Positions 10,308-17,518 of a DNA stretch of 24,000 nt are shown here, piece by piece. Made by a program: the position numbers and the translations under genes. Origin of the DNA: Pseudomonas sp. nanlin1 (GTDB lineage Bacteria > Pseudomonadota > Gammaproteobacteria > Pseudomonadales > Pseudomonadaceae); contig NZ_CP124218.1 of NCBI RefSeq assembly GCF_045571515.1, positions 5,307,663 to 5,331,662 on the forward strand, in the 5' to 3' direction. The first letter of the stretch is position 1. Each line of letters begins with the position of its first letter. The notes beneath the pieces are model-generated. The model searched no databases, was not told the DNA's origin, and saw only the letters and a list, made by a program, of their open reading frames with translations.

Positions 10308-11480
10308 TCATAAAATATCGACCTTTACGCGTTCAGATTTCAGTTGCTCGCTTAAAGTCCGCATTGATTTCACCCAGAAGTTGATTGATAAAGATGAGGT
10401 TAGAGATTTGATCTCATGAAACCAACCTTCAGGCAAAAAAAGGATATCTCCTGGTTTCAAATTAACCTCAATAAAAAGGACCTGTTCCGCCTTAGGGAAT
10501 GCGGTATAGTCGGGCGCTGTGGGCTTGAAATCACAGCCTTCCAAACCGCCGTTCAGTGACGTTGACCAACAGCCCAGAGCCTCGCGATTGTGAGGCGCTG
10601 CTAGGAGAACCGATTTTTCTCCCCACACTTGGGCAAAAATGTTGTCGACATCATCTCTGTGTAATGGAGTAAGGGTGCCTTCAGGGCCTAGCCAAAAGCG
10701 CGGCGTGTGATATAGAGAACGATCAAAAAAATTAGGAAATTTGATGAATTCAATCAGCCTCTCAGGCAGAATATTATTACCCATATACGCTGGCAGCTCA
10801 TCAGAACTCTTACGGGGCATGTCATCAATATTTGCAATAAATTCTGAAATAGAAGAAACCCTAAACTCCCGCTCAGTTGAGAAAGCCTTATCGACATATG
10901 CACCATGACGAGTAATACCCTGTAAATTCGAAAATATTTCTTGAACAGAATCCCTCGACATACTGAATAACGGCCAATCTCTCAGCCCTTGAGAAATTAC
11001 AACTGGAATTCCTTTCAAACGATGGTTAACAGTAAATTCTTTACGAGACAAATCATCTGCTGGAATTCGCATGACTCCATTGTCAAAACTTAAACGTTCT
11101 GATACATCTTCACTAAAACGAGGCAATGCGGGATATCGCTTATTCATCACGACCTCAATCGCACCAGAGTTTTTTCTGTCGATCGCCCGTATCAGATCGG
11201 GAATTAAAGTTGCCCGACCAAGGTCACCAACTATTTTCAACCTACCTTCAGAAAATAATTGCTCAATGTCAGCTTCGCCTTGCACCACCTTGTAAAAAAA
11301 ATATTCCAGTATGTGGATAGTAACGTCAGGGAAAGCATGCATACCACACTGAGCAGTCTTTGATTTGGGAGCATTTATCCAGTAGCGATCAGAGTCTGAA
11401 AAAACAAACTGAAAAACTCCTGAAACACCTACCAAATCAGCATTGTAAAACAATTCAGAAACCTTGTTTATTAAGCACAT
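10308..11480 (-). CDS. SCP2-domain / JmjC (cupin, FIH-like) 2-oxoglutarate-Fe(II) oxygenase fusion protein
   Basis: The C-terminal half has TPLHRDDVDNIFAQVWGEKSVLL (HxD plus a 2OG-binding Lys context) and GDILFLPEGWFHEIKSL (distal His). It closely parallels the FIH motifs NFFAQIKGYKRCILF and GDVLYIPMYWWHHIESL as I recall them. The N-terminal approx. 110 aa has an SCP2-like signature (...VTIHILEYFFYKVVQGEADIEQLFSEGRLKIVGDLGRATLIPDL). I prefer the ATG at 11480, preceded by GGAG; the track start at 11570 would overlap the upstream gene by 37 nt. Confidence 0.8.
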   Translation of the reverse strand: MCLINKVSELFYNADLVGVSGVFQFVFSDSDRYWINAPKSKTAQCGMHAFPDVTIHILEYFFYKVVQGEADIEQLFSEGRLKIVGDLGRATLIPDLIRAIDRKNSGAIEVVMNKRYPALPRFSEDVSERLSFDNGVMRIPADDLSRKEFTVNHRLKGIPVVISQGLRDWPLFSMSRDSVQEIFSNLQGITRHGAYVDKAFSTEREFRVSSISEFIANIDDMPRKSSDELPAYMGNNILPERLIEFIKFPNFFDRSLYHTPRFWLGPEGTLTPLHRDDVDNIFAQVWGEKSVLLAAPHNREALGCWSTSLNGGLEGCDFKPTAPDYTAFPKAEQVLFIEVNLKPGDILFLPEGWFHEIKSLTSSLSINFWVKSMRTLSEQLKSERVKVDIL

Positions 11481-11533
11481 ATCTAACTCCGAGCCACCCT
11501 TAATATATACAAATCCGGCGCACAATATAATTT

Positions 11534-12646
11534 CTAATGATCGTTCAAGGCAGCCGCCCCCCCTGAACATTCAATCAAAACTTTATCAATATCTAACAAA
11601 CGCTGAGTAGTTGCTTTCCACGCTGCTAATCGCTCGTATGCACTTATGAACCAACACAGGTTTTCGCACAAATTGCCGAAAGCCGAATTTATCTGCATAA
11701 TATCGCCAAAACTTAGGCTGCCCGCAAAAAACCGAGGTACTGCCAGCATGCTGCTGAAAATTAGGCAAAACTTGTTATAGCTTATGCTAAATAGGGTCAA
11801 GCGACTTTTAACCATAATTACCTGGCGCATGTTCGTGAGACTCACTTCTAATTTTTTCATAACAGATGCCTTTCTAGAACAGTTTATTTTCTCTATACGC
11901 TGCATTAGAGAATTACTTCGAAAGGAGACAAGTTCAAATCGGAGATCAGCCTCAGATCGTTGTTGATCATTACTTAACAGAACCAAACTAGAGCCTATCC
12001 TTTGGCAAATATATGTACCGAAAAAAGCGTATAGAATGGCAGCCCAAAACATATGAGCCGGCACCGTAACGCCCCATACAGAAGCCTCGCCGGAAATTTC
12101 GACTAATACGAAGCTAAATGAGATGATGCTTACAGCCGTATAAATCAGCCCGCACAAAAGATCTAACGATTCAAAGGTGAATTTCTTGATATCCTCTGCG
12201 ATTCTCTGATCAGGGTTGTCAATAATCCATTCAATCTCATGTGCCCGAGCGGAAGCAGAGCCCCATTTAGAAATATAATAGCGAGTTAACCAGCGCCTCC
12301 ATTTGAGCGCAAGCAAATCGACAAGGTAAGTAACGGCAACGAGCCTAGCGACGCAAAAGATGGAAATCCCGACAAAAAACCCAATTAAACTATAAAAGCC
12401 CCGCACGTCGCGATCTTGGATGGCATTGTAAAAATTTTTATACCATTCATTGATAGCCAGAGCTGATACCACCCCCAAGATCGAAAGAGCGAGCAACGTA
12501 AGAATTGCAAACCAAGCAAAAGCACGCTCTTGGCTGCCCCAATAGAGCGAGATGATAGGAATCAAAGACTTAAAAAAACAATTACTTTCAACTTTTGATA
12601 CTTTATTGCGATACGCCATGTATCCTTCACCCGCAGTATGCATCAT
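11534..12646 (-). CDS. SbmA/BacA-like peptide transporter (transmembrane domain only, no ATPase domain)
   Basis: 370 aa and polytopic. Motifs NEWYKNFYNAIQ, KWRRWLTRYYISKW, NPDQRIAEDIKKF and a C-terminal INSAFGNL...ERLAAWKATTQRL line up with E. coli SbmA (NAWYAPFYDLIQ, RWRTAMNEYYMANW, AAQRVQEDTMRF, ITNVFGQV...MSIYKRLRSFE) as recalled from memory. No Walker motifs are present. An alternative start is the ATG at 12619, preceded by GAAGGA. Confidence 0.72.
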   Translation of the reverse strand: MMHTAGEGYMAYRNKVSKVESNCFFKSLIPIISLYWGSQERAFAWFAILTLLALSILGVVSALAINEWYKNFYNAIQDRDVRGFYSLIGFFVGISIFCVARLVAVTYLVDLLALKWRRWLTRYYISKWGSASARAHEIEWIIDNPDQRIAEDIKKFTFESLDLLCGLIYTAVSIISFSFVLVEISGEASVWGVTVPAHMFWAAILYAFFGTYICQRIGSSLVLLSNDQQRSEADLRFELVSFRSNSLMQRIEKINCSRKASVMKKLEVSLTNMRQVIMVKSRLTLFSISYNKFCLIFSSMLAVPRFFAGSLSFGDIMQINSAFGNLCENLCWFISAYERLAAWKATTQRLLDIDKVLIECSGGAAALNDH

Positions 12647-12684
12647 AGCATTTGTAAGATTATCTCGGTTAACTGGTGGTATCG

Positions 12685-14106
12685 CTAAATCGACCAGAAG
12701 CCTAACTTTCCCAAACTAGAGCCAAGTCGGAGACGCGCGATTTGCCAGTTTTTCATCGTGTCAATGTGTTCCTGATTGGCAGCAGAGGAGGCAGACAAGG
12801 CATTTAACAACTCAATCATGCTGCCGACTCCGGACTGATAGCGTCCCCGTTCAATATTTAATGATTGACTTGAAAACTCTACCCATTTATCTGTGGCGTC
12901 TAACGAGTCCGTTGCAGATTTAAGATCTTGGACATTTGACCAGACATCTAATGCAACTTGTAGTTCTTGACCTAAAATTTCGGCTTCGCGCTGTTCCAGC
13001 CGTGCTTGGGCAGCGCGTGCGTTAGACCGCCCTTCGAAACCATCAAACAAAGGAATAATTAATTGAATGCTAATGCTATTATCTTGGATATAGCTCCTCC
13101 CACTCGGTTGTACAGATTGATCAGTTCTGACGTTGCTATGACTAACTTTCAGATTAATTCTCGGCATTGTCTCCGCACGCTGCACCTCAATGGCCGCTTT
13201 TTGGGCGTCTCTTACAGAATTTGCAAAAATCATGGAAGGATGATCTCGCTTGGCTTGTTCGATGAGCTCATTGACGCTTTCAGAAAATTTGATACCTGGA
13301 TTTCGGCGTAAATTCACCGCTAGTTCTAAAGGAGTTTCAGGTGGGAGCCCCATGCGCAACGCGATTAGTCCCTTAGCTTTAAGGAGTGTTCTTTGGTGAT
13401 GGCCCCTGTTAATTTGAGCCTGGGAATAAGCGGTCTGGGCCTGGAGACGATCTGAAAGCGCGGCCGCACCTGATTCATACTTAGCGGTCGCCACTTGAAG
13501 ATATTCAGATGCGTAGGCAGAAACTTGGCTTGCCGCGACAAATCTATGATGTGCCGCAACTGTATCGTAGAATAGTTGTGAAGCATGTAAAAACACATCC
13601 TGCAGATGATTGTCTTGGCCAGCGTTTGCTGCAATGAGTAAATGTTTTGCATTTCTAAGATTCGCATCCCTGTGACCGAAGTCAAATAGCACCCAACTCA
13701 AACTCAGTCGGTTGTGAATTTGCCGCAGATACCCATGTGTAGAAAGGTTATACCGCTGATCGTATGCGATGTCCTTGTCACTACCGGTAACAGCAACGAT
13801 GCCATCGAGGCGTGGCAGATAAGCTGACTTTCTGACCTCAACAGCTTCGGCTTGAGCTTTGGAAATAGCCAATCCCCGCCGAACCTGAGGATCATTACAA
13901 AAAACTCGTTCGACCACGTCTTCCAAAGTCAAGACCTTCGGCAATACATTGCTATGACAAGCGATGGGTAGACTACCAAAGCGATGTATATCACTACTGT
14001 ACATACTAATCGGAGTTAGTGAGCCCGCAGCATCCGATGCTCCGACAGAGTTTGAATAGACCAAGTATAGAAAGCATGTGATGTGAGTTATAAATTTCTT
14101 TAGCAT
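12685..14106 (-). CDS. TolC-family outer membrane channel (type I secretion OMP)
   Basis: 473 aa. Signal peptide is MLKKFITHITCFLYLVYSNSVGA. The N-terminal region LTLEDVVERVFCNDPQVRRGLAISKAQAEAVEVRKSAYLPRLDG is typical of TolC/OEP repeats, and the architecture shows two OEP repeats. The gene starts 3 nt after the ABC gene stop. Confidence 0.88.
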   Translation of the reverse strand: MLKKFITHITCFLYLVYSNSVGASDAAGSLTPISMYSSDIHRFGSLPIACHSNVLPKVLTLEDVVERVFCNDPQVRRGLAISKAQAEAVEVRKSAYLPRLDGIVAVTGSDKDIAYDQRYNLSTHGYLRQIHNRLSLSWVLFDFGHRDANLRNAKHLLIAANAGQDNHLQDVFLHASQLFYDTVAAHHRFVAASQVSAYASEYLQVATAKYESGAAALSDRLQAQTAYSQAQINRGHHQRTLLKAKGLIALRMGLPPETPLELAVNLRRNPGIKFSESVNELIEQAKRDHPSMIFANSVRDAQKAAIEVQRAETMPRINLKVSHSNVRTDQSVQPSGRSYIQDNSISIQLIIPLFDGFEGRSNARAAQARLEQREAEILGQELQVALDVWSNVQDLKSATDSLDATDKWVEFSSQSLNIERGRYQSGVGSMIELLNALSASSAANQEHIDTMKNWQIARLRLGSSLGKLGFWSI

Positions 14107-14109
14107 TTT

Positions 14110-16236
14110 TTAACGTCCGCAGCCGGACATATTGACGCGATCATCCACAACTCGACCAGCATGCAACGAAACCACTCGATTTGCAGTAGCTATAGTCTCG
14201 GGGCGGTGCGCAACAAGAATCCTAGTTATTTGAAGAGATTGCAGAGCAAGATTTACTTGGCGCTCACATGCTAGGTCAAGATGACTTGTTGCCTCATCAA
14301 GTATAAGAATGTCCGGTTTTTTATAGAGCGCCCTTGCCAGAAGCACGCGCTGCTTCTGCCCCCCAGATAAAACAGTGCCCATATCCCCAACGAGTGTATT
14401 GTAACCCATCGGCAGTGCCTGAATTTCATCGTGAATTGAGGCCTTCCGGGAACACTCTATGATCCAGTCCAAGTCAGGACTAGTATCAAAAAAAGCGATA
14501 TTATCTGCAAGTGAACCAGCAAAAAGACAATCATCTTGCATAACGGTGCCGATTTGGCTGCGAAATTTATTCACATTTAAATGGCGGAGATCTTCACCGG
14601 CTATTTTTATCTTTCCTTCCGTAGGGGTTAAGATCCCCAATAACAGCCCAATGAGAGTACTTTTACCACTACCAGAAGCGCCGGCGATCGCAACTAACTC
14701 CCCATAAGCAATATGCAGGTCTATACCCTTTAATACATAATCTTCATGCGCCGAATAACGATACTTTAAACCCTTTATATCAATATCGCCAAAGAGAGCA
14801 GGATCTCTATCTTCAAACTCCTTGATATCTTCAGGGGGAGAGGTAACAATATCTGCCAAACGCTCAGCCTGTAATCTAAGCATATTAAGTGCAAAAATGC
14901 TGTCTATTAAACTGGATACACGACTCATAAACTGAGTTTTATACGCTATAAATGCCATCAGCACACCGACAGTGAATTCACTATTCATAACCATTGAAGC
15001 ACCAAACCCGACTGCAATAATACTTTCAGCGCCAAAAATCAAGCTATTCAATTGCGTATATGTCAGCTGTAGTTTGTGGGTTCTTAAACCGGCGTTGATC
15101 TGCTGGACCAGTAACGCGAGCCAAACTGACCGCCTCTCAGCGTCACGTTGAAAAAGCTTAATTGTACGTATGCCTCGTACAGTTTCGAAAAAATGACTTT
15201 CTTGTCGAGCAGTATGAGTGATTTGCTCCTCACTTGCCCGGCGTAATGGAAGGTACCATGCCCATCTAAAAGCTGCGTAGGCAACAATGGCGGCCACACT
15301 TACCAGTGAAAGTGGTGGACTATAAGCAAACATTAGAATGAGCGTTGCTATGGTCATTAATCCATCAAGCAGAGTGGAAAAAAAAGCAGCCGTCAGTGTT
15401 TTCTGTATTTCGCCAATAGCGCCGAATCTTGAAACGATGTCACCTAAATGGCGCTTTTCGAAATACTGAACGGGTAAGCGGAGAAGATGAGTAAATACGT
15501 TGGCACGCCACTGAACACTTAATAAGGTAGTCATGTGAATCATGACCAAAGCAAGTGTAAAACTAACCGCTTGCTGCATCACTAATAATATAGAAAATCC
15601 TATTATTAACATATGCAGCAGATCGCGATCCTGGGTAATCAATACATTGTCGAAGATCCATTGTAAAAAAAATGGACCTATCAGTGACATGGTCTCCAGC
15701 ACAAGCGCCAATATTAGCACTTGCGTTAAACTCCGATATAGTCCGTGGACTCTGCCTACGATATCTGCAATTTTTATCTCCGACTTGGCCTTCTTTTTTT
15801 CAAAACCGTTGTCCGTCCATAATTCAACAGCTATACCAGTGAAAGATAGGCTGACTTCAGATAGACTTAACTTACAGTTGCCTTTTGCGGGGTCATGCAA
15901 GACTACATACTCTCCCTGTATGGCTTTTAGAACAACAAAGTGGTTGAAGTTCCAGTGCAAAATGCACGGCAAGCTGAGCTTCCCTATATCTTCAAGCTCA
16001 AGCCTGACAGATCTTGTACCCAGCTTGAGAATTTTAGCTGTTGTAATCAGCTGCTTCAGATTCATTCCTTTGAGGGACACACTAAATTGACGGCGTAAAT
16101 CCATAAGTGATACGTGGTATCCGTGATAACATGAGATCATTGCTAAGCACGCCAAACCACATTCGGTAGCTTCCGTTTGGAGAATCAATGGTAGCCGTCG
16201 GCCAATCCGAAACGCTAACGAATCTAAGTAACTCAT
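14110..16236 (-). CDS. Peptidase-C39 domain ABC transporter (bacteriocin/microcin processing exporter, CvaB/MchF-like)
   Basis: 708 aa. The N-terminal C39 domain has a catalytic Cys context (QTEATECGLACLAMISCYHGY) and a His/Asp context (ILHWNFNHFVVL...VLHDPAKG). Six TM helices follow. The NBD has Walker A GASGSGKST, signature LSGGQKQR and Walker B ILILDEATS. Confidence 0.95.
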   Translation of the reverse strand: MSYLDSLAFRIGRRLPLILQTEATECGLACLAMISCYHGYHVSLMDLRRQFSVSLKGMNLKQLITTAKILKLGTRSVRLELEDIGKLSLPCILHWNFNHFVVLKAIQGEYVVLHDPAKGNCKLSLSEVSLSFTGIAVELWTDNGFEKKKAKSEIKIADIVGRVHGLYRSLTQVLILALVLETMSLIGPFFLQWIFDNVLITQDRDLLHMLIIGFSILLVMQQAVSFTLALVMIHMTTLLSVQWRANVFTHLLRLPVQYFEKRHLGDIVSRFGAIGEIQKTLTAAFFSTLLDGLMTIATLILMFAYSPPLSLVSVAAIVAYAAFRWAWYLPLRRASEEQITHTARQESHFFETVRGIRTIKLFQRDAERRSVWLALLVQQINAGLRTHKLQLTYTQLNSLIFGAESIIAVGFGASMVMNSEFTVGVLMAFIAYKTQFMSRVSSLIDSIFALNMLRLQAERLADIVTSPPEDIKEFEDRDPALFGDIDIKGLKYRYSAHEDYVLKGIDLHIAYGELVAIAGASGSGKSTLIGLLLGILTPTEGKIKIAGEDLRHLNVNKFRSQIGTVMQDDCLFAGSLADNIAFFDTSPDLDWIIECSRKASIHDEIQALPMGYNTLVGDMGTVLSGGQKQRVLLARALYKKPDILILDEATSHLDLACERQVNLALQSLQITRILVAHRPETIATANRVVSLHAGRVVDDRVNMSGCGR

Positions 16237-16246
16237 TTAATTTCCT

Positions 16247-17518
16247 TCAGAATTTTTCTGTCAGACTATAGATAGGATTGATCACCCATTCATATAGATG
16301 GCGACTTTCCTGCAAGATGTCTGCTTCAACCAACATGCCAGCACGAAGCGGACGAGATTCTCCATTAGCCATCACGAATTGGTCCTCGATTTCAACGCGA
16401 ACTTGATATACTTGCTCCCCACCAACTTCGAGCCCGGGCACGGTTCCAGACACAGAAGCTAATTCATGTGCAGACAAAGCAATTTTTGTAATGCTTTTGA
16501 TCTTTCCGGCGTGCTGACCAAATTTTTGATAGGGGAAGGAGTGATATCGCATCATCACAACATCCCCGACGTCAATAAATCCGACAGCTCTACCTGGAGC
16601 ATATAGCTCAACTAGGAGAGAAGACCCTTCCGGTAAAACAGTCATCAACGGCCGATTATAGTGTATGGTTTGACCTGGCTCGGCTAAGATAGCCGTTACC
16701 AAACCCGCCTGCGGAGCAATCACTATTTCTGTACGCTGGGCCTCGCTTTCAATAAACTCCTGCTCTACATTGAGCAGCGCACGTTGAATAGCGGCTTCTT
16801 GATTTTGATGTATAGCCGAAAGCTGCGAGCAATAACGTGTCCGCTCTGTAAACTCGTAATCTAGGACCTGGGCCTCTCTAGCTAGCATCTGGAGCTTTTG
16901 CCGCTGACCCAATAGTTCCGCTTGGCGTTGCTGTAATTGGTCGATCGATATGTAACCTTTTTCCCTGAGACCTTGATAACGATTGCTTGCGTCCGCGGCC
17001 AGTTGGACCAGCCTTCTTTGGTCCGCTATCTGCTCGCTTAATGCCTCTAACTGATGCTTGAGACTTTTTAGCTTGCTTTGAATACCAGACGTCTCCTCAG
17101 CCTGAATCTGCTTGAGTGTTAACAATTCCTTCCGAAGAGATAGTCTTCGCTGTCCTATGCGATCACTAACACCTGCATGCACGTGGCTTAAATCCCCTGA
17201 ACGACGCTCGCCGGATAACCGAACCAGCCGCTCTCCCTGCTTGACCACTTGGCCCTCTTCAACAAACCGCTCGAGTATTGAGCCATTCCCCCTGGCATAT
17301 ATTTTTACCAGGCCTTGGGACGGTACCAACTGCCCGGAAAGCGTAACGCGCTTTGTATAACTGCCAAGAAATAGCATCATGATTAGCGAAACTAACGCGC
17401 CCCCCGCAAGCATCGTGTATAGACGAAATGATATTGGCCGAACTATTAAAACCTCGCCCAACCATAGAGCGCCTCTAGAACTCAATGCTTCAGAACGAAA
17501 CAACCTTTTTTTTGACAT
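16247..17518 (-). CDS. HlyD-family membrane fusion protein (CvaA/MchE-like)
   Basis: The ATG at 17518 gives MSKKRLFRSEALSSRGALWLGEVLIVRPISF..., which parallels the CvaA N-terminus (FRQDALE...). A single TM helix is followed by a long coiled coil and a C-terminal beta-barrel. The stop lies 10 nt upstream of the ABC start, and an AAGGAA SD lies in the gap. Confidence 0.9.
   Translation of the reverse strand: MSKKRLFRSEALSSRGALWLGEVLIVRPISFRLYTMLAGGALVSLIMMLFLGSYTKRVTLSGQLVPSQGLVKIYARGNGSILERFVEEGQVVKQGERLVRLSGERRSGDLSHVHAGVSDRIGQRRLSLRKELLTLKQIQAEETSGIQSKLKSLKHQLEALSEQIADQRRLVQLAADASNRYQGLREKGYISIDQLQQRQAELLGQRQKLQMLAREAQVLDYEFTERTRYCSQLSAIHQNQEAAIQRALLNVEQEFIESEAQRTEIVIAPQAGLVTAILAEPGQTIHYNRPLMTVLPEGSSLLVELYAPGRAVGFIDVGDVVMMRYHSFPYQKFGQHAGKIKSITKIALSAHELASVSGTVPGLEVGGEQVYQVRVEIEDQFVMANGESRPLRAGMLVEADILQESRHLYEWVINPIYSLTEKF

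Follow-up and report, generated by a model that had tools for sequence, protein, structure and literature searches.

The window analyzed here, a stretch of 24,000 nucleotides from Pseudomonas sp. nanlin1 (contig NZ_CP124218.1), encodes on its minus strand, at positions 11534-12646, a membrane permease of the YddA/BclA lineage that lacks the nucleotide-binding domain (NBD) of ABC transporters and is embedded in a class II microcin producer island. According to the sequence comparisons described below, the clade to which this permease belongs is nested among full-length ABC transporters of the YddA/BclA/Rv1819c type and lost the NBD independently of SbmA/BacA. The literature searched contains no description of this Pseudomonas cluster type, nor of such a permease in class II microcin clusters. 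The first-pass annotation of the stretch, made from the letters and the open reading frames (ORFs), had noted that no role for a protein of this kind is established for class II microcins.

Domain content and predicted structure of the permease

The permease ORF is uninterrupted and in its longest form specifies 370 amino acids (aa). The true start is probably the ATG at 12619, which is preceded, 6 nt upstream, by a GAAGGA ribosome-binding site (RBS) and gives a protein of 361 aa. The NCBI gene model for Pseudomonas sp. nanlin1, with the product name “SbmA/BacA-like family transporter”, has the same start at 12619, the same length of 361 aa and 100% identity to the permease. A Pfam search identifies ABC_membrane_2 with 120.7 bits (gathering cut-off 24.4) and SbmA_BacA with 98.5 bits (gathering cut-off 24); both scores are far above the thresholds, and the protein thus falls within the superfamily to which the first-pass annotation had assigned it rather than in an unrelated transporter family.

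No ABC_tran domain is detected in the permease by Pfam, and a tblastn search of the window with three YddA-type NBDs yields a sole match, the NBD of the C39-peptidase ABC exporter encoded upstream (positions 14131-14739). Because this is the only NBD in the window, the permease has neither a downstream NBD of its own nor a frameshift that would hide one; its ORF stops about 20 aa past the sixth transmembrane helix (TM6). The description of the protein as ATPase-less is borne out by these searches. The competing possibility raised at the same time, that of a truncated ABC half-transporter, fares differently in its two parts: the lineage is literally truncated, yet in a way that is conserved and under selection rather than accidental, and neither a frameshift nor a downstream NBD was found.

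An AlphaFold2 (AF2) model of the permease (mean pLDDT 83.6, pTM 0.78) contains six long TM helices, with two short N-terminal helices (residues 6-17 and 24-36) ahead of TM1. A Foldseek search started with this model identifies Rv1819c, SbmA and ABCD1 as the top matches, followed by exporters of the MsbA/Sav1866 type; the TM-scores are only 0.4-0.47, as expected for a lone protomer of a domain-swapped dimer. The permease is accordingly modeled as a six-helix membrane protein with the fold of the membrane domain of type IV ABC transporters.

Family placement and origin of the NBD loss

A search against 5.8 billion proteins identifies about 75 clusters of NBD-less proteins of about 350-406 aa that are 51-63% identical to the permease, and all named members of this short clade are from Pseudomonas. 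The clade is followed by a sharp gap, below which the identity is 33-40% and the matches are hundreds of proteins of 560-610 aa in which membrane domain and NBD are fused. When single genomes were scanned for each species, the short form was found in two loci, both inside microcin clusters, and full-length transporters (571-685 aa, 28-41% identity) in all 26 of the other loci extracted. The housekeeping YddA-like transporters of Pseudomonas are 37-41% identical to the permease. Among solved structures, the best match is the ABC importer Rv1819c (123 bits, E 1.6e-34), followed by SbmA (58 bits) and then ABCD4. The identity to E. coli SbmA is 23.5%, and the SbmA equivalog model NF008306 gives 87.5 bits against a cut-off of 492.

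In a neighbour-joining tree of the membrane domains (Kimura distances, rooted on the membrane domain of the C39 exporter, 100 bootstraps), the short permeases are monophyletic in 100 of 100 bootstraps; SbmA lies outside the clade that joins them to the Pseudomonas YddA-like proteins in 98, and is their sister in one. The tree holds one SbmA sequence and its topology within the YddA radiation is unreliable, so that only the monophyly of the clade and the exclusion of SbmA are used here. Given that the clade is nested among full-length transporters of the YddA/BclA/Rv1819c type, the NBD was lost independently of SbmA/BacA, for which the loss has been placed in an early YddA-like ancestor (PMC13316013, PMC12912959). 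In the published work on SbmA, 2.1% of those proteins that carry the annotation “SbmA” fall outside the main clade; the permease group is undescribed there.

A plasmid collection searched with the permease as query yielded only full-length proteins of the YddA/BclA type (identity of at most 36%) and no microcin-associated member of the clade. A distant match that seemed to be NBD-less (P0087) turned out to be a split gene with an NBD directly downstream and is no second example. The housekeeping Pseudomonas YddA-like gene that was inspected (locus L025) lies among genes for peptide-binding substrate-binding proteins and for a two-component system. Genes for iron or siderophore functions are absent from this neighborhood, and the context is no help in naming a cargo.

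Probable loss of NBD docking, and other transport features

Proteins of the SbmA/BacA family possess an extra N-terminal domain, TM0, that consists of helices TM0a and TM0b (PMC8442886). This domain is absent in the permease: the alignment to E. coli SbmA begins at about residue 60-68 of SbmA, and the permease is 36-45 aa shorter. The glutamate ladder of SbmA (E193, E203, E269, E276, E287 and E378; PMC13316013) corresponds to E151, L161, S225, E232, R243 and A342, i.e., two of the six glutamates are present. Across the clade, E203 is replaced by L, I or V, E269 by S or N, and E287 by R; at the position of E378, 13 of 14 members of the clade have D or E and the window protein has Ala, so that the ladder of the clade comprises at most three of six residues. 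The ladder of YddA has been reported as similarly incomplete, without equivalents of E203 and E287. The permease keeps the equivalents of SbmA Y116, R190, E193, E276 and R385. Taken with the equivalog score and the tree, the missing TM0 and the incomplete ladder mean that the “SbmA-like” label of the first-pass annotation holds at the level of the superfamily and fails at the level of orthology.

The clade is better conserved than its full-length relatives in every aligned TM and loop segment save two. One of these, aa 241-258 of the window protein, has an entropy of 2.1-2.7 bits in the clade compared to 0.9-1.2 bits in the full-length relatives. It aligns to 'RENAESIALYGGE', a segment of the TM4-TM5 cytoplasmic loop that is conserved in the full-length proteins and that we take to be the EAA-like motif (coupling helix 2) known from ABCD and type IV exporters. 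In the AF2 model, the TM4-TM5 loop at the decayed motif is only 5 residues long. The other segment is the TM2-TM3 loop (aa 127-144) which, like the poorly aligned N-terminus, is marginally less conserved in the clade (by 0.1-0.2 bits); a short helix of the model (residues 135-142) and an invariant DNPDQRIAED motif are kept in this loop. The decay of the motif at aa 241-258 is direct sequence evidence that the permease most likely no longer works with an ATPase, be it in cis or in trans.

The helices of the clade also contain charged residues that are specific to it, namely R101, D110, D162 and E288, and one may speculate that these are candidates for a new coupling mechanism. Position 288 is Glu in 12 of 14 clade members and Ile in the window permease. 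The latter diverges more than any other member of the clade: it is 48-57% identical to the rest, compared to 52-99% for pairs among the rest.

Conservation and gene order across Pseudomonas islands

Alignment of 33 orthologues of the permease reveals 92 invariant columns. The dN/dS ratio is 0.05-0.12 for the pairs in which it could be computed, most pairs being excluded on account of saturated synonymous sites; by these measures, the permease is under purifying selection and appears to be functional. It is present in 13 of 14 independent Pseudomonas clusters with MchC and HlyC genes, which come, in addition to the window, from P. chlororaphis (two strains), P. antarctica, P. syringae pv. avii, P. 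svalbardensis, P. mosselii, P. trivialis, strain BP8, P. brassicacearum, P. lactis and P. corrugata. Every one of these clusters has the pair of MchC and HlyC. For 18 further representatives of the permease, the contig is identical in size to that of a representative of the MchC-like proteins.

The clusters that contain the permease display four different gene orders, of which HlyD-ABC-TolC-permease-MchC-HlyC is the commonest. The permease is still located behind TolC in the window, strain BP8 and P. brassicacearum, with MchC and HlyC in another part of the cluster. In P. mosselii, its place is behind the precursor genes, just downstream of TolC and again apart from MchC and HlyC; in P. svalbardensis, it is found together with MchC and HlyC.

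In three near-identical genomes of P. trivialis (L090, L091 and L092, positions ~11120-12846), MchC is called as two fragments, split differently in each genome (191+354, 253+287 and 148+384 aa), HlyD is uncalled in two of them, and an intact permease occurs in identical form on 22 contigs. The split could reflect either a decaying cluster or assembly errors. The clusters of P. chlororaphis, P. syringae pv. avii and P. lactis are flanked by a gene for a 620-aa protein with DUF3857 and a transglutaminase core (L001:13815-15677, L101:12594-14456, L082:15993-17861 and L099:13621-15483), which suggests a preferred insertion site that differs from that of the window and from the relA/cysM-side site of P. 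brassicacearum and P. corrugata.

The permease as part of an export chassis

In pairwise comparisons of nine loci, the identity of the permease correlates closely with that of HlyD (r = 0.91), the ABC exporter (r = 0.88) and TolC (r = 0.92) and weakly with that of MchC and HlyC (Spearman 0.27 and 0.16); the identities of MchC and HlyC correlate with each other (r = 0.80). The clusters of P. syringae pv. avii (L082:1131-13400) and P. lactis (L099:1-12300) share 98-100% nucleotide identity from GerE to the permease, i.e., over GerE, HlyD, the ABC exporter, TolC and the permease, and over the first ~500 bp of MchC; beyond this point, the nucleotide identity is 56-71% through the rest of MchC and HlyC. 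The two permeases are 99% identical, compared to 66-69% amino-acid identity for most of MchC and all of HlyC. This pattern looks like a recombination breakpoint inside MchC and a recent horizontal transfer of the upstream genes between species groups. Given that the identity of the permease tracks that of the export genes and that the breakpoint lies inside MchC, the permease is part of a conserved export chassis, together with GerE, HlyD, the C39 exporter and TolC, and recombination exchanges precursor/immunity cassettes and part of the MchC/MchD tailoring genes on this chassis.

For the pair of P. chlororaphis loci (L001 and L101), unlike identities had raised the suspicion of exchanged modules; this was rejected, the loci being ~90% identical throughout. 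The C-termini of the precursors are of several types (...RL.GSG..GA/SLAA; ...FFPQ.PG..GS / ...FRPQTPTAS; ...NRLSNGS / ...SRLESGGA; ...TRNISSS; and ...PYNPADAK), and P. mosselii encodes two precursors (L085:7887-9117). The variety of the tails goes along with the variety of MchC and HlyC alleles.

The single cluster of the 14 without a permease is that of P. corrugata, which keeps the precursor, exporter and tailoring genes. This locus (L100:830-3190) is syntenic with that of P. brassicacearum (L098:18410-19712), at ~85% nucleotide identity, and has a two-component system (response regulator and histidine kinase) in place of the permease. The MchC allele of P. corrugata differs and is inverted. 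The species is non-fluorescent, and a pyoverdine cluster has not been found in it (PMC4528175).

Possible functions of the permease

The data support an ATP-independent permease that is generic with respect to the peptide, co-expressed with the exporter and kept by selection; beyond this, we infer a direction of transport, an energy source, a dimeric state and a cargo. The class IIb microcins of enterobacteria have a Ser/Gly-rich C-terminus to which MchC/MchD (MceJ/MceI) attach glycosylated enterobactin (PMC7472721). The C-termini of the precursors are short tails rich in Gly, Ser and Ala. Every large ORF of the island (10.2-23.1 kb) that looks plausible is accounted for, and neither an IroB-like glycosyltransferase nor an IroD-like esterase was identified among them or among the gene calls of the related Pseudomonas loci; glycosyltransferases are present in the classical Pantoea cluster. 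Because the tailoring enzymes are present and genes that make the attached molecule are not found, we tentatively prefer, with low confidence, the explanation that the permease imports, independently of ATP, the molecule to be joined by MchC/MchD to the microcin's C-terminus. The permease would act as a homodimeric inward transporter, presumably driven by a membrane gradient, that carries a bulky hydrophilic partner molecule into the cytoplasm of the producer, where the MchC/MchD homologues would join it to the Gly/Ser-rich C-terminus of the precursor; the C39 exporter would then cut the leader and secrete the product. The partner molecule would probably be a siderophore that is matured outside the cytoplasm or is environmental, such as pyoverdine.

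The characterized relatives of the permease (BclA, Rv1819c, SbmA/BacA) import bulky hydrophilic cargo, e.g., cobalamin, bleomycin and peptides (PMC12003926, PMC8442886), and P. corrugata, as a single case, is counted in favor of the import of an acceptor. In E. coli K-12, yddA adjoins yddB, the gene for a putative TonB-dependent receptor (L097, 1575500-1581500), which hints at a parent lineage with a role in uptake across both membranes.

Several observations weigh against acceptor import. The divergence of the permease follows the export genes and only weakly MchC and HlyC; the permease is thus not specifically tied to the tailoring enzymes, and a constant acceptor and a generic export-side or protective role fit equally well. 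The correlation seen in P. corrugata rests on one case, and such a transporter is absent from the Ralstonia MchC/HlyC cluster that was inspected. An importer is not logically required, given that the acceptor chemistry of class IIb clusters can come from other parts of the genome (PMC7472721). The window permease is without two acidic residues typical of the clade (I288, A342), and the incomplete SbmA-type proton pathway leaves the energy source unexplained. There is no match to the Fur box (GATAATGATAATCATTATC, at most 3 mismatches) in the window, which is neutral on iron regulation.

A bolder version of acceptor import, which we regard as rather doubtful, would make the clade a second, independent case of an ATP-independent transporter derived from a YddA-type ABC importer, at an intermediate stage of this transition and recruited to import a periplasm-matured siderophore (e.g., pyoverdine) for coupling by MchC/MchD. 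As judged from the sequences, the clade does appear to be at such a stage, with the NBD and the coupling motif gone but neither TM0 nor a complete glutamate ladder in place. If true, these islands would hold the first pathway to a siderophore-microcin that does not use enterobactin chemistry, and the first one known to rely on siderophore import.

Nearly as likely as acceptor import is a protective re-uptake, in which the permease would import stray or re-entering microcin from the periplasmic face for degradation in the cytoplasm. BacA and BclA protect rhizobia from membrane-active NCR peptides by importing them, and such a role has been discussed for the family (PMC8442886, PMC12003926, PMC12912959). 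The permease is co-oriented with the exporter genes and evolves alongside them, and its 99% identity in P. syringae pv. avii and P. lactis despite the exchange of the precursor/tailoring cassette fits a promiscuous function independent of the peptide; P. corrugata, however, keeps the precursor, exporter and tailoring genes without it, and directly upstream of the window precursor there is already a probable dedicated immunity factor, a small protein with two hydrophobic segments. The mature peptide, at ~89 aa, also speaks against re-uptake, being to our knowledge several times larger than the known cargos of the permease family. Another protective role, which appears improbable, is that of a decoy or dominant-negative subunit: class II microcins commonly need an inner-membrane transporter as a receptor (e.g., ManYZ or SdaC), and if those of Pseudomonas use the housekeeping YddA-like half-transporter of the target as a receptor or entry route, an NBD-less paralogue could form dead heterodimers with it or titrate the peptide and thereby confer generic immunity. 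The closest relatives of the permease are indeed these housekeeping transporters, its TM6 is nearly identical to theirs (MQINSAFGN...WFI.AY), the loss of the NBD and of the coupling motif matches the expectation for a poison subunit, and membership in the chassis is consistent with so generic a role. Heterodimerization is, however, uncertain at 37-41% identity, the strong clade-specific conservation of the membrane-embedded R101, D110 and D162 argues for a working transporter rather than a passive decoy, and we know of no precedent for immunity by a paralogous decoy among microcins.

The reverse direction of transport would make the permease an outward-acting accessory of export that, in the manner of an efflux protein or flippase, disposes of a by-product, a cofactor or misinserted peptide. 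The position directly behind TolC in most clusters and the evolution together with the type I secretion genes are compatible with this possibility, one report describes E. coli YddA as a multidrug efflux protein (PMC9728188), and a review states that such transporters “can import (and possibly export)”. We nevertheless consider it quite unlikely, given that the characterized close relatives BclA, Rv1819c and SbmA/BacA are importers, that there is no NBD to drive export, and that the C39-peptidase ABC exporter (PCAT), HlyD and TolC already form a complete export route. The two remaining explanations are effectively ruled out. A non-functional remnant, i.e., a truncated half-transporter pseudogene carried along with the island, could be imagined for a lineage that normally has a fused NBD and for a gene that one syntenic cluster lacks, but not easily for about 75 orthologues that are intact and uniform in length, 92 invariant columns, low dN/dS at saturated synonymous sites, conservation above that of the full-length relatives nearly throughout, barring the NBD-docking motif, and an intact permease in P. 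trivialis next to an MchC called in two fragments. Acquisition by the island of a true SbmA/BacA (SLiPT) orthologue would account for the score above the Pfam SbmA_BacA threshold and for the name given by NCBI; it is contradicted by the equivalog score far below the cut-off, by the 23.5% identity to E. coli SbmA compared to 37-39% for Pseudomonas YddA-like proteins, by the single bootstrap out of 100 with SbmA as sister, and by the absence of TM0 and of four of the six ladder glutamates in the window protein.

The operon and the microcin island

The permease gene starts 38-65 nt past the stop of the TolC-like gene (12685) and ends ~50 nt ahead of the likely start of a gene for a protein with SCP2 and Cupin_8/JmjC domains (11480), and no convincing terminator was found at the TolC/permease and permease/SCP2-Cupin_8 junctions. 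The genes for HlyD, the C39-peptidase ABC exporter, TolC, the permease and the JmjC/Cupin_8 oxygenase thus form, in this order, an apparent operon, and the intervals bear out the placement of the permease between a dedicated TolC and an oxygenase, co-oriented with the exporter, that had been proposed for it. The surroundings (Table 1) are equally those of a class II microcin producer cluster, as had been suggested, with a precursor, a probable immunity gene, a HlyD/C39/TolC exporter and homologues of MchC and HlyC.

Table 1. Predicted genes of the microcin island in the window
Feature	Positions	Strand	Evidence
SCP2 + Cupin_8/JmjC protein, 2-oxoglutarate oxygenase-like	10308..11570	-	Pfam Cupin_8 107 bits, SCP2 29.9 bits, JmjC_2 24.2 bits
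NBD-less permease of the YddA/BclA lineage	11534..12646	-	Pfam, match to Rv1819c, AF2 model and Foldseek, RBS, NCBI gene model
Dedicated TolC-family outer-membrane channel	12685..14106	-	Pfam OEP 137.6 bits
C39-peptidase ABC exporter (PCAT)	14110..16236	-	Pfam Peptidase_C39, ABC_membrane, ABC_tran; only NBD in the window
HlyD-family membrane-fusion adaptor, type I secretion	16247..17563	-	Pfam HlyD_3, HlyD_D23
Small GerE/LuxR-type regulator, helix-turn-helix only	17754..17963	+	Pfam GerE 68.6 bits; 69 aa
Microcin precursor	20060..20380	-	Translation; double-glycine-type leader MRELTDEEIFMVSGA, Gly/Ala-rich core, C-terminus ...RLGGSGGAGGSLAA
83-aa protein with two hydrophobic segments	20377..20628	-	Translation; stop abuts the precursor start
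MchC/MceJ homologue (SelO-like tailoring enzyme)	20817..22637	+	tblastn to annotated MchC genes; 606 aa
HlyC-family acyltransferase-like protein (MchD/MceI counterpart)	22627..23103	+	Pfam HlyC 64.7 bits; overlaps the MchC stop

With the likely start at 11480 (a GGAG RBS precedes the ATG), the SCP2-Cupin_8/JmjC protein consists of ~390 aa. Its nearest solved relatives are the protein-residue hydroxylases JMJD5, FIH and JMJD7, and it may hydroxylate the peptide or the imported molecule. Only two of the clusters encode it, those of the window and of P. mosselii (loci L085/L086; L085:11141-12286), directly downstream of the permease in both. The precursors of these two clusters have a common ...(D/S)RL(G/W)GSG... 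tail. Among the export proteins, the TolC-like channel and the HlyD adaptor match the type I secretion models TIGR01844 (type_I_sec_TolC, 157 bits, curated cut-off 225) and TIGR01843 (117.9 bits, curated cut-off 208.65), respectively, in both cases below the cut-off. The GerE regulator is divergent from the export operon, and a homologue adjoins the export operon in related loci.

A scan for leader motifs recovered the window precursor along with paralogous precursors in the related loci; its tail, ...GGSGGAGGSLAA, ends in Ala, not Ser. The 83-aa protein has no match in Pfam and, by its position and hydrophobicity, is probably a dedicated immunity protein. In a tblastn search with the window MchC homologue, the matches (30-35% identity, E as low as 1e-38) are plasmid genes of Salmonella and Pantoea with the annotation “MchC protein”, and in all three contexts inspected an HlyC-type acyltransferase gene follows. 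The relatives of the window protein comprise ~100 homologues in Pseudomonas and then the enterobacterial MchC. The 606-aa protein has no match in Pfam or in a sequence search of solved structures; MchC has been described as a divergent member of the SelO family (PMC3281104). The solved relative of the HlyC-family protein is ApxC.

The GC content of the island is ~39-47%, compared to 62% for the chromosome. The genes to the left of it (dapF, xerC, amtB, a LysR regulator and a PhoD-like gene) belong to the host, including the xerC-like gene at 2082-2978. A scan for integration sites found no tRNA gene in the window, and no integrase was found in the island. At the right end of the window (23100-24000), the GC content is still ~39-44%, and the low-GC island probably continues past this point. 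The region of ~2 kb between the GerE regulator and the precursor (17964-20059) contains no convincing gene, only short ORFs without a Pfam match (e.g., 19219-19506), and its GC content of ~47-50% is above that of the rest of the island; it could be the remains of a degraded cassette.

Implications

Recent structural work derives SbmA/BacA from a YddA-like ABC transporter through the loss of the ATPase and the gain of a proton pathway (PMC13316013, PMC12912959). The Pseudomonas clade is an independent natural repeat of this type of ATPase loss that looks less advanced, and it allows a direct test of the minimum needed to make an ABC membrane domain ATP-independent. The permease also marks widespread, uncharacterized microcin islands of the MchC/MchD type in Pseudomonas, in which ~100 clusters of MchC-like proteins are found, and it is the most obvious handle on the cargo and hence on the modification chemistry of these islands. 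If instead the permease protects the producer or blocks uptake, it would represent a new kind of generic immunity, located on the export module, that would bear on the prediction of resistance to engineered microcins.

Comparison with known systems

The closest lineage is that of YddA, BclA and Rv1819c, with 35-41% identity between the permease and full-length members from Pseudomonas and other proteobacteria, common DNPDQRIAED and MQINSAFGN motifs, the same six-helix core, and Rv1819c as the best solved match. The permease differs from these proteins in that it has no NBD nearby and a decayed EAA-like NBD-docking motif, in the clade-specific charged helix residues R101, D110 and D162, and in its location, a horizontally moving microcin island as opposed to a housekeeping locus. 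With SbmA/BacA it shares the superfamily, the fold, and the reduction to a membrane domain that has probably lost the coupling to an NBD; its evolutionary origin is separate, TM0a and TM0b are missing, and it belongs to a producer cluster whereas the known SbmA/BacA proteins act in target or host-associated cells.

The island as a whole resembles the class IIb systems (MccE492, MccH47, MccM) in the double-glycine-type leader and Gly-rich core of the precursor, the small immunity gene beside it, the C39-peptidase ABC exporter with a HlyD adaptor, and the pair of MchC/MceJ and MchD/MceI, which are encoded by overlapping genes in the window. The window island differs from them in having no IroB-like glycosyltransferase and no IroD-like esterase; truncated enterobacterial class IIb clusters also lack IroB/IroD-like genes and borrow these functions from elsewhere in the genome (PMC7472721). 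Further differences are the Ala, instead of Ser, at the end of the window precursor, the SCP2-JmjC oxygenase that is encoded in some of the Pseudomonas clusters and, in the window island, the dedicated TolC, the GerE-type regulator and the extra permease.

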